Origin: a virus
Lineage: Duplodnaviria > Heunggongvirae > Uroviricota > Caudoviricetes
Virus record (IMG/VR): IMGVR_UViG_2663762945_000009
Length of the DNA: 5,682 nucleotides
Reading direction: 5' to 3' (one strand)
In this document: piece after piece, positions 2,071 through 5,682 of the stretch
Layout of the letters: every line of letters begins with the position of its first letter
Position numbering within the stretch: the stretch's first letter is position 1
The notes under the pieces: model-generated
What the model was told of the DNA's origin: nothing
Databases searched by the model: none
What the model saw: the letters and a program-made list of their open reading frames with translations, nothing else
Program-made: the position numbers and the translations under genes

Positions 2071-2604
2071 TCATTCTGGTTGTTCGGGAAACGTTACTGG
2101 CAGGCCGGAAGTGTCTGTAGATTCGACTTTCTGCGCATAGAGCATCCACTCGGTTAATTTTTGTTTATTCTCGTCGGAAATGATGCCCAGCCGTAGCTGT
2201 GAGTCCCATAGCTGGGTTTTATCCCTGACAAGTTGCAACAGGCTTTGCTTTTCATTTTCCGCTTGTTGCCTCTGCTCTTCCTCGGTATAAGTTCGCTTTA
2301 TCACTACGCCATCTTTGAACATCCATTTCCCCGAAATATCAGCCCGGCGATTTGCTGTAATATCAGGTAATTCAACGACGCTTGCACCCTCTGGATTAAT
2401 TGCTGAAACATCCTTTTCAATACAAATAATAACGCCGTTATGGTCATAGACCATTTTCAAAGTGTCTGGCTGGAAATTCTTTTGTTCCTCATACCAGTTT
2501 TTTCCATCATCTGAATAAAGCCATTTGATGTTAAATTGCTTTGTTAGCTGGTATTGCTCTTTTGTTTTAGGGTTGCCAGCAGTAATGTTTTTTAAGTGCA
2601 TCAT
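2071..2604 (-). CDS. tfa: Tail fibre assembly protein (second, inverted copy; Mu U'-like)
   Basis: 177-aa [25 protein letters not shown], a paralogue of the + strand Tfa with a diverged C-terminal half. GGGGAG Shine-Dalgarno inside the 3' end of the upstream stf fragment. Confidence 0.85.
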   Translation of the reverse strand: MMHLKNITAGNPKTKEQYQLTKQFNIKWLYSDDGKNWYEEQKNFQPDTLKMVYDHNGVIICIEKDVSAINPEGASVVELPDITANRRADISGKWMFKDGVVIKRTYTEEEQRQQAENEKQSLLQLVRDKTQLWDSQLRLGIISDENKQKLTEWMLYAQKVESTDTSGLPVTFPEQPE

Positions 2605-2606
2605 CG

Positions 2607-2840
2607 TTAAATACTCCCCGCGTTATACCACGTCCCATTAATGCAATACTGAATTGGCCTTGCCTGAGTTGTATCAATTAATTCATCACGGTTTCCGTTA
2701 ACTGAACCCGTAACGACATAACCTGACCTGTCAGACCAGCCGGGGCCTTTCCATGTCTGAACAGATGACAGACCGCCAAGGCGAATACCTGTAATAAACC
2801 TTGAGTTACATTCTGCCTGCGTATATGCACCAACATCTCG
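2607..2840 (-). pseudogene. stf: Side tail fibre protein, second variable tip, truncated to its C-terminal ~75 codons
   Basis: The - strand encodes ...GAYTQAECNSRFITGIRLGGLSSVQTWKGPGWSDRSGYVVTGSVNGNRDELIDTTQARPIQYCINGTWYNAGSI, alignable to the last ~75 aa of the 549-1511 ORF (shared RLG...RPIQ.Y/CINGTWYN). The 5' portion and its expected gix site are replaced by lambda-like sequence. Confidence 0.6.
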
Positions 2841-2888
2841 CCTTTGAAAAAATCCAGATATCCGCCGGAATGGTGCAGAAATGTCGGT

Positions 2889-3164
2889 ATACGGATAACG
2901 GCTACTCCGTGTTTGAGCAGTCACTGCTGCGGTATATCGCTGCCGGGCTGGGTGTCTCGTATGAGCAGCTTTCCCGGAATTACGCCCAGATGAGCTACTC
3001 CACGGCACGGGCCAGTGCGAACGAGTCGTGGGCGTACTTTATGGGGCGGCGAAAATTCGTCGCATCCCGTCAGGCGAGCCAGATGTTTCTGTGCTGGCTG
3101 GAAGAGGCCATCGTTCGCCGCGTGGTGACGTTACCTTCAAAAGCGCGCTTCAGTTTTCAGGAAG
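2889..3164 (+). pseudogene. B: Portal protein B, internal fragment (lambda gpB-like)
   Basis: Encodes TDNGYSVFEQSLLRYIAAGLGVSYEQLSRNYAQMSYSTARASANESWAYFMGRRKFVASRQASQMFLCWLEEAIVRRVVTLPSKARFSFQE, which I recognise as an internal stretch of lambda B. It ends abruptly at 3164. Confidence 0.8.
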
Positions 3165-3688
3165 GCGGCACTGGCAAGCAGCTGACCTGCACTGCAGTTC
3201 ATGTCGTTGGCCAGCGCCCATACCGGTTTTATGTCACGCACACGGGCGATGATGTCAGCGCAGTCAAATGCCCCCGCCACCATCCCGCCGGGCGTGTCCA
3301 TATCGAGCAGAATGCCGTCCACCATCGGATCGCTGGCAGCCTGTTGCAGACGGGCGATAATGCCGTTGTAACCGGTCATCCCCGAGTACGGCTGCAGCGC
3401 CCGCGTCCGGCTGACCAGCGTGCCGGACACCGGCAGCACGGCGATGCCGTTCATGACCTGATAACTGCGGGCCTGTCGTGGTCCGTCATCATCACCGGAT
3501 AATGCCAGCGTCGCGGGTGCCTCCTGGGCAGTCAGGCTGTCGCCGGACACCGCATCCGTCAGGCGGCTGATCCCAAGCTGGCCTGCAAGCGCACAAAAGA
3601 AAACCCGCGCATAGGCGGGTTCAAGCATCAGCGGCTCATTAAAAGCCATGCTGGCAATATGCGGGAGATTACGCAGCTCTGCTGTCAC
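3165..3688 (-). pseudogene. C: Head protease/scaffold protein C (S49 ClpP-like), N-terminal ~173 codons
   Basis: From GTG at 3686-3688 the - strand encodes VTAELRNLPHIASMAFNEPLMLEPAYARVFF...MNCSAGQLLASAA, the lambda gpC N-terminus as I recall it. It overlaps the B stop by ~20 nt as in lambda. Reading continues into unrelated sequence after 3165. Confidence 0.8.
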
Positions 3689-3958
3689 TCTTCTCCTCCT
3701 CTGTTGATTGTCGCAGCCCGGATTCAAATGCTGCAGCCGCCCAGGCGGGCGGTTTAAGACCGGCTGCGCGGCGCTCCATCGTTTCACGGACCTGCTGGGC
3801 AAAAATTTCCTGATAGTCGTCACCGCGTTTCGCGCACTCTTTCTCGTAGGTGCTCAGTCCGGCTTCTATCAGCATCACCGCTTCCTGAACTTCTTTCAGA
3901 CCATCGATGGCCATACGACCGGAGCCTATCCAGTCGCAGTTCCCCCAGGCACTGCGGG
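3669..3958 (-). pseudogene. B: Portal protein B, C-terminal ~95 codons
   Basis: The - strand encodes ARSAWGNCDWIGSGRMAIDGLKEVQEAVMLIEAGLSTYEKECAKRGDDYQEIFAQQVRETMERRAAGLKPPAWAAAAFESGLRQSTEEEKSDSRAA then a stop. This is the direct continuation of the + strand B fragment that ends at 3164, but on the opposite strand. Confidence 0.8.
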
Positions 3959-4154
3959 CTCCCGGCGTCTGGTCACGCAGACCGCCCGGACAGGCTCCAT
4001 CGGCGTCATGATGGCTCACAGTAATTACGGTGCTGCGCTGGAGAAACAGGGTGTGGAAATCACTCTGATTTACAGCGGCAGCCATAAGGTGGATGGCAAC
4101 CCCTACAGCCATCTTCCGGATGACGTCCGGGAGACACTGCAGTCCCGGATGGAC
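3959..4154 (+). pseudogene. C: Protein C, internal fragment continuing from the - strand C fragment
   Basis: Encodes SRRLVTQTARTGSIGVMMAHSNYGAALEKQGVEITLIYSGSHKVDGNPYSHLPDDVRETLQSRMDAT, the residues that follow ...QLLASAA in lambda C. Strand is opposite to the C N-terminal fragment. Confidence 0.75.
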
Positions 4155-4470
4155 GCAACCAGATAAGGGTGTTGCGCTGCTTATGCTCTATGAAGTAGGC
4201 ATAAACACCCAGCAGCATTTTGGAATAACCGACACGGGCAGACTTCACCACATTCACCTCACGGATGTAGTCGCTGCCCATCGCATTCATGATGGCCCGC
4301 TGAAAGGGCAGTGTTTCCCAGCGCCCTTCCTGGTATGCGGATTCTTTCGGGAGATAGTAATTGGCATCCGCCCATTCAACGGCGGTCTGTGGCTCCGGCC
4401 TGAACAGTGAGCGAAGCCCGGCGCGGACAAAATGCCGCAGCCTGTTAACCTGACTGTTCGATATATTCAC
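4155..4470 (-). pseudogene. A: Terminase large subunit A, N-terminal ~105 codons only
   Basis: From GTG at 4468-4470 the - strand encodes MNISNSQVNRLRHFVRAGLRSLFRPEPQTAVEWADANYYLPKESAYQEGRWETLPFQRAIMNAMGSDYIREVNVVKSARVGYSKMLLGVYAYFIEHKQRNTLIWL. It overlaps the Nu1 stop as in lambda. Homology ends at ~4155; this N-terminal piece is the Nu1-interacting region, and the ATPase and nuclease domains are missing. Confidence 0.85.
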
Positions 4471-4990
4471 TCAGCAACCCCGGTATCAGTTCATCCAGCG
4501 CGGCTGCTTTGTTCATGGCTTTGATGATATCCCGTTTCAGGAAATCAACATGTCGGTTTTCCAGTTCCGGAAAACGCCGCTGCACCGACAGGGGGATCCC
4601 GTCGAGAATACTGGCAATTTCACCTGCGATCCGCGACAGCACGAAAGTACAGAATGCGGTTTCCACCACTTCAGCTGAGTCTCTGGCATTCTTCAGTTCC
4701 TGTGCGTCGGCCTGCGCACGCGTAAGTCGATGGCGTTCGTACTCAATAGTCCCTGGCTGGAGATCTGCCTCGCTGGCCTGGCGCAGTTCTTCAACCTCCC
4801 GGCGCAGCTTTTCGTTCTCAATTTCAGCATCCCTTTCGGCATACCATTTTATAACGGCGGCAGAGTCATAAAGCACCTCATTACCCTTGCCACCGCCTCG
4901 CAGAACGGGCATTCCCTGTTCCTGCCAGTTCTGAATGGTACGGATACTCGCACCGAAAATGTCAGCCAGCTGCTTTTTGTTGACTTCCAT
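4445..4990 (-). CDS. Nu1: Terminase small subunit Nu1, full length
   Basis: 181-aa ORF MEVNKKQLADIFGASIRTIQNWQEQGMPVLRGGGKGNEVLYD...SEYIEQSG with intact start and stop. It matches lambda Nu1 as I recall it. It lies immediately downstream (on the - strand) of cosB. Confidence 0.9.
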   Translation of the reverse strand: MEVNKKQLADIFGASIRTIQNWQEQGMPVLRGGGKGNEVLYDSAAVIKWYAERDAEIENEKLRREVEELRQASEADLQPGTIEYERHRLTRAQADAQELKNARDSAEVVETAFCTFVLSRIAGEIASILDGIPLSVQRRFPELENRHVDFLKRDIIKAMNKAAALDELIPGLLSEYIEQSG

Positions 4991-5167
4991 TGTTCATTCC
5001 ACGGCCAAAAACAGAGAAAGGAAACGACAAAGGCCCAAAAGTTCGTTTTCAGCACCTGTCGTTTCCTTTCTTTTCAGGGGGTATTTTAAATAAAAACATT
5101 AAGTTACGACGAAGAAGAACGGAAACGCCTTAAACCGGAAAATTTTCATAAATAGCGAAAACCCGCG
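4991..5167 (-). promoter_or_regulatory. cosB-like terminase-binding region (R-site repeats)
   Basis: Three R-element-like repeats of the cgtttcc(t/g)ttc(t) type at ~5012-5033, ~5054-5071 and ~5110-5126, between cosN and the Nu1 start. This is the layout of lambda cosB. Confidence 0.6.
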
Positions 5168-5179
5168 AGGTCGCCGCCC
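5168..5179. other. cosN cohesive-end sequence (12 nt)
   Basis: aggtcgccgccc is the reverse complement of the lambda 12-nt cohesive end GGGCGGCGACCT. Sequence beyond 5180 resembles the lambda right end (cosQ side), so the two genome ends are joined here as in a prophage or concatemer. Confidence 0.7.
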
Positions 5180-5378
5180 CGTAACCTGTCGGATCGCCGG
5201 AAAGGACCCGAAAAATGATAATGATTATCATCTGCATGTCACAACGTGCATCTACGCCATCAAACCACGTCAAATAATCAATTATGACGCAGGTATCGTA
5301 TTAATTGATCTGCATCAACTTAACGTAAAAACAACTTCAGACAATACAAATCAGCGACACTGAATACGGGACAACCTC

Positions 5379-5612
5379 ATGTCAACGAAGAACAGAACCC
5401 GCAGAACAACAACCCGCAACATCCGCTTTCCTAACCAAATGATTGAACAAATTAACATCGCTCTTGATCAAAAAGGGTCCGGGAATTTCTCAGCCTGGGT
5501 CATTGAAGCCTGCCGCCGGAGACTGTGCTCAGAAAAAAGAGTTTCTCCTGAAGCAAACAAAGAAAAGAGTGACATTACTGAATTGCTCAGAAAACAGATC
5601 AGACCAGATTGA
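5379..5612 (+). CDS. Hypothetical small basic protein (77 aa), possible ribbon-helix-helix DNA-binding fold
   Basis: ORF MSTKNRTRRTTTRNIRFPNQMIEQINIALDQKGSGNFSAWVIEACRRRL... has a basic N-terminus, then a short beta-like segment (NIRFP) and two helix-like segments. Only a weak GGGA Shine-Dalgarno ~7 nt upstream. It lies in sequence resembling the lambda right-end region; whether it is expressed is unknown. Confidence 0.35.
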   Translation: MSTKNRTRRTTTRNIRFPNQMIEQINIALDQKGSGNFSAWVIEACRRRLCSEKRVSPEANKEKSDITELLRKQIRPD

Positions 5613-5682
5613 AGCAATTTAGATAATCGTGCAGACTACGCTCCCTCATATCACATGGAAGGTACTACAATGGCTCAGGTTG

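Follow-up and report, generated by a model that had tools for sequence, protein, structure and literature searches.

An intact lambda-type cos site and nu1 gene in a rearranged lambdoid prophage remnant

Gene content of the remnant

The window analyzed here is the whole stretch of 5,682 nucleotides from the Caudoviricetes record IMGVR_UViG_2663762945_000009. It was annotated by combining a listing of open reading frames (ORFs) with Pfam scans and a BLAST map against phage lambda (NC_001416). Taken together, these describe the whole window as a patchwork of lambdoid late genes, which are listed below with their window positions, the strand where assigned and the corresponding lambda positions.

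1-45: 3' end of a diguanylate cyclase gene
119-468: tfa gene remnants and a truncated Pin-type invertase gene
549-2604: C-terminus of stf and two convergent tfa genes
2858-2890, plus strand: internal 33-bp piece of A (lambda 2056-2088), fused to the B fragment
2889-3173, plus strand: fragment of the portal gene B (lambda 3872-4156)
3160-3963, minus strand: 3' end of B and 5' part of C, inverted (lambda 4143-4946)
3950-4160, plus strand: fragment of the protease gene C (lambda 4933-5143), inverted relative to nu1
4155-5541, minus strand: first 316 bp of A, nu1, cos and the lambda right end (lambda 1026 back via bp 1 / 48502 to 48141)
4060-4470, minus strand: truncated A (large terminase), of which codons 1-105 (4156-4470) are protein-identical to lambda gpA and are followed by 31 out-of-frame codons
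4445-4990, minus strand: nu1 (small terminase, nohA/nohD-type), a complete ORF of 181 amino acids with a Pfam Phage_Nu1 match
5379-5612, plus strand: ynfO/ylcI-type gene (Pfam DUF3950)

The small terminase gene had been described as complete in the initial annotation, which is confirmed by a full-length match to the Pfam profile PF07471 (Phage_Nu1; positions 1-164 of 164, E = 9e-101). Its product is identical to lambda Nu1 in 180 of 181 residues, with L132I as the only replacement next to four synonymous changes in the gene. The same annotation considered A to be truncated and the portal and protease genes to be fragmented, and both the lambda map and the ORFs agree with this. A proportion of 105 out of 641 gpA residues is kept, and the stub matches the Pfam profile GpA_ATPase at positions 3-64 of 247 only. 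A functional gpA (641 amino acids, comprising ATPase, nuclease and portal-binding parts) is missing, codons 1-105 and the 33-bp internal scrap being all that is left. The B fragment matches the profile Phage_portal_2 solely in the C-terminal 54 positions of the latter, and the C fragment yields a partial Peptidase_S49 match. Neither W nor an intact B or C is present within the 5.7-kb window, which, together with the cut in A at codon 105, upholds the earlier claim that this element cannot package itself. An Rfam scan of the window gave no matches.

The cos site

The interval 4445-5230 contains a complete lambda-type cos (cosQ, cosN, I2, R3, I1, R2 and R1) in addition to the full nu1 gene. The subsites are arranged as follows.

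5203-5209, minus strand: cosQ (GGGTCCT), the packaging-termination subsite; same as lambda by alignment, where we take it to occupy 48473-48479
5166-5181, minus strand: cosN, consisting of the 12-nt cohesive-end sequence GGGCGGCGACCT at 5168-5179 and 2 bp on either side; same as lambda
5130-5162, minus strand: I2, an AT-rich spacer separating cosN from cosB (lambda bp 18-50); same as lambda
5115-5130, minus strand: R3, the cosB site critical for Nu1/TerS binding (lambda bp 50-65); same as lambda
5072-5114, minus strand: I1, the interval between R3 and R2 that holds the IHF site; two changes relative to lambda (73 A>G and 102 T>C)
5056-5071, minus strand: R2, an inverted Nu1 binding site (lambda 109-124); fully the same as lambda
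5015-5030, minus strand: R1, an accessory Nu1 binding site (lambda 151-166); core CGTTTCCTTTCT same as lambda

In a base-by-base comparison with NC_001416, identity to the window is unbroken from lambda position 48487 to 72, a segment that takes in cosN, I2 and R3. The definition of cosN as a 16-bp site and that of R3 with its contact base pairs were adopted from the literature (PMC9026076); the R3 contacts (bp 55-63) are unchanged. I2 is needed for initiation, and scrambling it is lethal for packaging (PMC4856287), while R1 has been classified as an accessory site (PMC4669245). Differences from lambda occur at positions 48486, 73, 102, 134, 138 (a 1-bp deletion), 139, 145, 151 and 176, and are confined to the spacers and the outermost base of R1. 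The distance from cosQ to cosN is the same as in lambda, no indels are found between cosN and R2, and the spacing between cosN and R3 is retained as well. R2 and R1 together make up an inverted repeat.

The majority of these variants are also seen elsewhere in E. coli, including the cos copies of the K-12 prophages DLP12 and Qin. Both changes in I1 are common to the DLP12 and Qin cos sites, and the change between cosQ and cosN (48486 T>C) is also found in DLP12. The 1-bp deletion in the spacer between R2 and R1 is common to all E. coli copies examined, among them that of E. coli B, which is otherwise identical to lambda over a stretch of 883 bp. The window also agrees base for base with phage PhiR26_1, a deposited phage genome with MG1655 as listed host, from 5210 to 4920 (cosQ, cosB and into nu1). 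This agreement includes position 48486, the I1 interval and the outermost R1 base (C>T at lambda 151). An intact cosN and an R-site-bearing cosB had been reported before, with the advice to compare both to those of a helper phage. The correspondence with lambda extends to every defined subsite, and cosN, R3, R2 and the R1 core proved unchanged relative to both lambda and PhiR26_1. Judged by its identity to the PhiR26_1 cos and by the published function of the near-identical DLP12 cos, this cos should remain functional for nicking by a terminase of lambda specificity.

When up to two mismatches are allowed, GGGCGGCGACCT has a sole match in the window (5168-5179, minus strand). A 14-nt cosN-like inverted match was observed inside the B fragment (3039-3052). 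As a candidate cosN it was rejected and attributed to chance: it is present in lambda's own B too and fails the 12-mer search at up to two mismatches.

Origin and relatives of the remnant

The 1,528 bp from position 4155 to 5682 are 100% identical to a lambda-like prophage of the ST131 strain TUM18780. This prophage is apparently intact, as it has annotated full-length A, W, portal, protease and capsid genes, and the B and C fragments of the window are 98.6-99.8% identical to it. All coding differences between the A stub and lambda are synonymous, as are four of the five in nu1, which points to divergence between functional phages rather than to drift after decay. The block of cos, nu1 and truncated A still equals its counterpart in an apparently intact prophage at every base. 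Decay has therefore had no time to set in, and the intactness of Nu1 is no sign of retention. The locus would thus be the packaging module from the left end (cosQ-cosN-I2-cosB and nu1) of a lambda-type prophage recently wrecked through deletions and inversions on short microhomologies. We consider it likely that we are dealing with the plain decay of a recent lambda-type prophage, in which cos is still cleavable and the module is intact through its youth and not through retention. Plain decay was the fallback explanation in the initial annotation and becomes the best-supported one with the 1,528-bp identity to the TUM18780 prophage.

The rearrangements themselves can be traced in detail. The truncated A is joined to the C fragment at 4155-4160 on a 6-bp microhomology (GCAACC), lambda 4143-4946 is reciprocally inverted relative to both flanks at an imperfect 14-bp inverted match, and lambda 2089-3871 is deleted. 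Such junctions at microhomologies of 6-14 bp are typical of illegitimate recombination. The exact A'/C' junction occurs in none of 5,426 complete E. coli genomes and has no match in the GTDB species representatives. Its sole match is a 1-kb metagenome contig from ENA (1,073 bp), which is 100% identical to window positions 3552-4624 and spans two junctions. Given its absence from the complete genomes and the GTDB representatives, this particular rearrangement is rare and shows no sign of spread. In related E. coli genomes, the flank with the diguanylate cyclase and tail-fibre genes is located beside ybhB-bioA, the lambda attachment locus, and related loci at this same chromosomal site have int/xis present and replication genes absent.

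The module as such is widespread. A 786-bp query (window 4445-5230; at least 80% coverage) detected cos-nu1 in 3,915 of the 5,426 complete E. coli genomes, where it occupies 8,957 places in total (median, two per genome). For the 3' 1.5 kb of a lambda-type A (again at least 80% coverage), the count was 4,880 places in 3,243 genomes. The excess of cos-nu1 places (8,957 versus 4,880) implies that many copies are orphans. The window has the layout of the nohD/nohA-type remnants, i.e., a DUF3950 gene, cos, nu1 and a truncated A within decayed late genes, and adds one more to this known kind of cryptic remnant, which is ubiquitous in E. coli. The noh names reportedly go back to Kotani et al. in 1992, who are also said to have dealt with the cutting of these E. 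coli chromosomal sites by lambda terminase.

Two such orphans are present in K-12. In DLP12 (ylcI-cos-nohD-aaaD), the gene order is that of the window, with the DUF3950 gene first, followed by a complete Nu1 homologue of 181 amino acids and an A that is likewise cut after approximately 103-105 codons (aaaD, an A pseudogene of 309 bp). Both sequences share 97.6% DNA identity over 1,379 bp and have cos spacer variants in common. Nonetheless, DLP12 adjoins appY/ompT, whereas relatives of the window's flank adjoin ybhB/bioA; its A ends 8 bp sooner (lambda ~1018, against 1026 in the window) and runs into tfaD instead of an inverted C fragment; and one base at its R3 edge is changed, which is not so in the window. 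The K-12 junction between A and tfaD is found essentially in K-12-derived strains, most other matches running into A past that breakpoint. Recombination of lambda with the cos region of DLP12 is about 100-fold more frequent than with Rac or Qin and has its junctions concentrated at cos; nohD is functional in lambda, yielding viable recombinants (PMC3945230).

Qin (ynfO-cos-nohA-stfQ-tfaQ-pinQ) similarly has a Nu1 homologue near a Pin-type tail-fibre module and no large terminase, and is 97.5% identical to the window over 1,219 bp. Here, a deletion has taken all of A and the nohA ORF (570 bp) overlaps stfQ, whereas the window retains a complete nu1 and 105 codons of A. Conversely, pinQ is annotated as full-length in Qin, while the Pin-type gene of the window is truncated. 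The order ynfO-cos-noh-stf-tfa-pin suggested at some point that the window could be K-12 Qin itself, but its best flank matches lie beside ybhB/bioA. An identity with either Qin or DLP12 was also rejected on the basis of only ~97.5% sequence identity and different junctions. That cos-nu1 persisted in prophages which decayed independently of one another (this remnant, DLP12 and Qin) could hint at retention; orthologous remnants with one common junction are limited to narrow lineages.

Helper terminase, alternative readings and significance

Helper terminases are able to cut and package repressed, and even partial, chromosomal prophages in trans, and such passive prophages are packaged from the upstream to the downstream cos with a yield of about 1-4 virions per cell (PMC4669245). 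The initial annotation had presented the resident Nu1 as part of what a helper needs. This does not hold, as the terminase that cuts passive or partial prophages in trans is encoded by the helper (PMC4669245), and neither the Nu1 of the remnant nor its gpA stub of 105 residues would be required. Initiation requires cosN and cosB, while termination requires the cosQ and cosN of a second site (PMC9026076, PMC4856287, PMC4669245). Cos-type terminases have been stated to require a second cos, and lambda has been described as lacking generalized or lateral transduction in a paper on P22 lateral transduction (PMC8575938).

Given the sequence identities described above, a helper phage could probably cleave this cos. 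It would serve as a substrate in trans for the lambda-specificity terminase of a superinfecting or co-resident lambda-like phage. Nu1 dimers would bind R3 and R2 over an IHF bend at I1, after which gpA would nick cosN at 5168-5179. Remaining bound beside nu1, the terminase would then translocate DNA in the direction of decreasing window coordinates, a path that in related loci would lead past the tail-fibre remnants and the gene for the diguanylate cyclase towards ybhB and bio. For lambda packaging, the second cosQ-cosN has to be present in the same orientation, approximately one genome length (38-51 kb) downstream. Because a second cos is required and the window contains one cosN, a helper would be expected to cause a double-strand break in the chromosome, to create a hot spot of recombination with incoming lambdoid phages and to give rise to one-ended, docL-like defective heads that are filled towards bio; efficient transduction is not expected. 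According to Sternberg and Weisberg (1975) and Sternberg (1986), docL particles reportedly begin at cos and end in bacterial DNA. The proposed course is analogous to that of the passive and partial prophages studied by the Feiss lab, where a chromosomal cos is cut in trans and packaging proceeds from cos in the direction of Nu1 and A. In those assays, however, a second cos one genome length downstream leads to viable virions, whereas the locus in the window has a single cos.

The single cosN also bears on the proposal of the initial annotation that the locus could be a transduction hotspot similar to the cos-type satellites, which is not sustained given the need for a second cosQ-cosN. It would imply that a helper packages the locus and its flanks into infectious particles at a raised frequency, either as a cos-type satellite or as a terminase-defective prophage rescued in trans, and we regard this as improbable. 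An intact cos that matches those of live phages is compatible with the proposal, as are the presence of a lambda-type A as a possible terminase source in ~60% of complete E. coli genomes and the aforementioned packaging of passive prophages by helpers. The lambdoid prophage Sp4 of O157 Sakai offers a further precedent: its nu1 is disrupted by an IS, leaving it without a working terminase, yet it is still packaged in trans, probably by the terminase of the co-resident prophage Sp14, whose cos is identical (PMC2669165). Both precedents nonetheless concern DNA of near genome length between two cos sites, a situation attained via excision and amplification or in tandem prophages. Sp4 undergoes excision and amplification and enters capsids as a prophage genome, whereas this remnant has lost most of the segment from A to the tail-fibre genes and most of its structural genes.

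The comparison with known satellites leads in the same direction. Gram-negative PICIs carry cosQ and cosN but no lambda-like cosB; their Rpp retargets the TerS of the helper, and they excise, replicate and block the helper (PMC9026076). The cos-type PICIs (e.g., EcCICFT073) resemble the window in having a cosQ and cosN close to those of lambda and a small winged-HTH gene at the position of terS. In contrast to their rpp next to a cos devoid of lambda-like cosB, the window comprises an ordinary lambda cosB with R3, R2 and R1, a genuine nu1 and no other PICI gene. P4-like elements are marked by a P2-type cos and the genes sid, psu, delta and alpha, whereas the cos analyzed here is of the lambda type and the corresponding domains are absent from the window ORFs. 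Among the 10 largest ORFs of the 5.7-kb window, no genes were found for an integrase, an AlpA-type regulator, replication, Rpp, capsid size or capsid remodelling. Together with the lack of any sign of spread of the exact rearranged locus (0 of 5,426 complete genomes), nothing within the 5.7-kb window suggests that the locus is a mobile satellite, as far as its sequence can tell.

A further possibility is that the module has been domesticated, with Nu1, perhaps along with the gpA stub and/or cos as a decoy, disrupting or redirecting lambdoid terminase and protecting the host in an Rpp-like or dominant-negative way. In one version, Nu1 could form mixed oligomers with a heterologous lambdoid TerS and divert the terminase to the resident cos, like Rpp; in another, a chromosomal cos decoy could waste terminase and break the chromosome in infected cells. 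The recurrence of cos-nu1 with a truncated A in independent remnants is in line with such a role. The first ~48 residues of gpA suffice for Nu1 binding. The stub lies within the N-terminal part of TerL that has been assigned as the TerS-binding domain, and the Rpp of PICIs is a Nu1-like winged-HTH protein that heterodimerises with TerS (PMC9026076). Moreover, the N-terminus of Nu1 matches the PADLOC model mad1 (E = 1e-11). This match is limited to the generic winged-HTH domain, however, and was discarded as generic similarity. The module and its counterpart in an apparently intact prophage are 100% identical, which leaves nothing in it that has been selected or altered; Nu1 is one conservative residue away from lambda Nu1; and the scan upstream of nu1 provides no promoter evidence (two promoter-like sites versus 1.2 ± 1.0 in shuffled sequences). 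The replacement of nu1 by nohD in viable lambda recombinants argues against an inhibitory protein as well (PMC3945230). Overall, we deem domestication very unlikely. The same low expectation applies to the more general idea that orphan modules of cos and Nu1, with or without a gpA stub, are proto-satellites or anti-phage devices, since nothing in the locus points there.

Finally, it is hardly credible that the head-to-head joins of A, C and B fragments reflect a misassembly or chimera and that the true locus is an intact prophage: although the exact junction is missing from the complete E. coli genomes and GTDB species representatives and the separate pieces match intact prophages at 98.6-100%, an independent metagenome contig with the same two junctions makes an assembly artefact unlikely, the joins are reciprocal and located on microhomologies as in real illegitimate recombination, and other strains have different, equally rearranged versions of the locus.

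Plain decay of a recent lambda-type prophage thus remains the preferred explanation, and in itself the finding is minor: one more lambda cos-Nu1 orphan, like nohD and nohA of K-12. If such modules did act as proto-satellites or devices against phages, their recurrence in most E. coli genomes would mean retention. If two co-oriented cos sites were located one head-length apart, the intervening DNA would be transducible, a question that the window does not raise. In strains used for the production of cosmids or phage particles, an orphan cos is a potential unwanted packaging start. More broadly, an orphan cos may expose the chromosome to breakage by an infecting lambda-like phage and, where that phage exchanges its own end with cos and terminase for the host copy, may add to the mosaicism of lambdoid phages.

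Rearrangement junctions and the breakpoint in gene A

Short microhomology is found at every rearrangement junction of the window (3160-3173, 3950-3963, 4155-4160 and 2886-2892). At one junction it comprises the 6-bp motif GCAACC. At another, lambda 4143-4946 (coordinates of NC_001416) was reciprocally inverted by way of an imperfect inverted match of 14 bp. The only other place in which the resulting rearranged A'/C'/B' structure was found is a metagenome contig of 1,073 bp (ENA ERZ27246823, contig k141_12425, 1-1073), which is 100% identical to window 3552-4624.

The large terminase gene A is cut at lambda bp 1026 in the window (4155-4163) and at about bp 1018 in aaaD, the A pseudogene of the cryptic prophage DLP12 of K-12 (position 7662 of L007, the ylcI-cos-nohD-aaaD locus). 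The two breakpoints thus lie just 8 bp apart, whereas the partner joined to A differs, being an inverted fragment of the protease gene C in the window and tfaD in DLP12. Their nearness may be a coincidence or may reflect a fragile spot.

An invertible tail-fibre segment

The left part of the window carries the following features:

298-468, invertase remnant, the gene being cut to 56 codons
~499-524, crossover-site-like sequence TTATCTAAAACCTCGGTTTACAGGAA
495-2837, Pin/Gin-type invertible tail-fibre segment, comprising the stf C-terminus and two convergent tfa genes

Homology to L002, the locus of another genome compared with the window, switches strand exactly at the crossover-site-like sequence, and the tail-fibre segment therefore appears to lie in opposite orientations in the two genomes. 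The breakpoint at 2837 seems to have removed the right-hand crossover site. With the invertase truncated as well, the tail-fibre switch would therefore be frozen.

Nu1, cos and the adjacent small genes

Residues 1-55 of the small terminase Nu1 (window 4826-4990), which form its winged-HTH domain, match the PADLOC model mad1 of the MADS defence system (E=1e-11). This match looks like generic MerR-like HTH similarity and not like a defence function.

In the spacer between the Nu1 binding sites R2 and R1, the alignment shows one G of the lambda reference (bp 138; window ~5042/5043) to be missing in each of the seven chromosomal cos copies from E. coli that were compared. Among these seven is the copy of E. 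coli B (BLR(DE3)), which is otherwise identical to lambda across the 883-bp cos-nu1 stretch compared. It is reference lambda that is the odd one out at this position.

An intact ynfO-type DUF3950 gene followed by the start of a DUF1398 gene occupies window 5379-5682. Both are homologous to the right end of lambda (lambda 47440-48290), in which the sequence matching the ynfO part has no annotated gene. This homology and the missing annotation suggest that lambda itself has the two small genes, in decayed form, upstream of cos.
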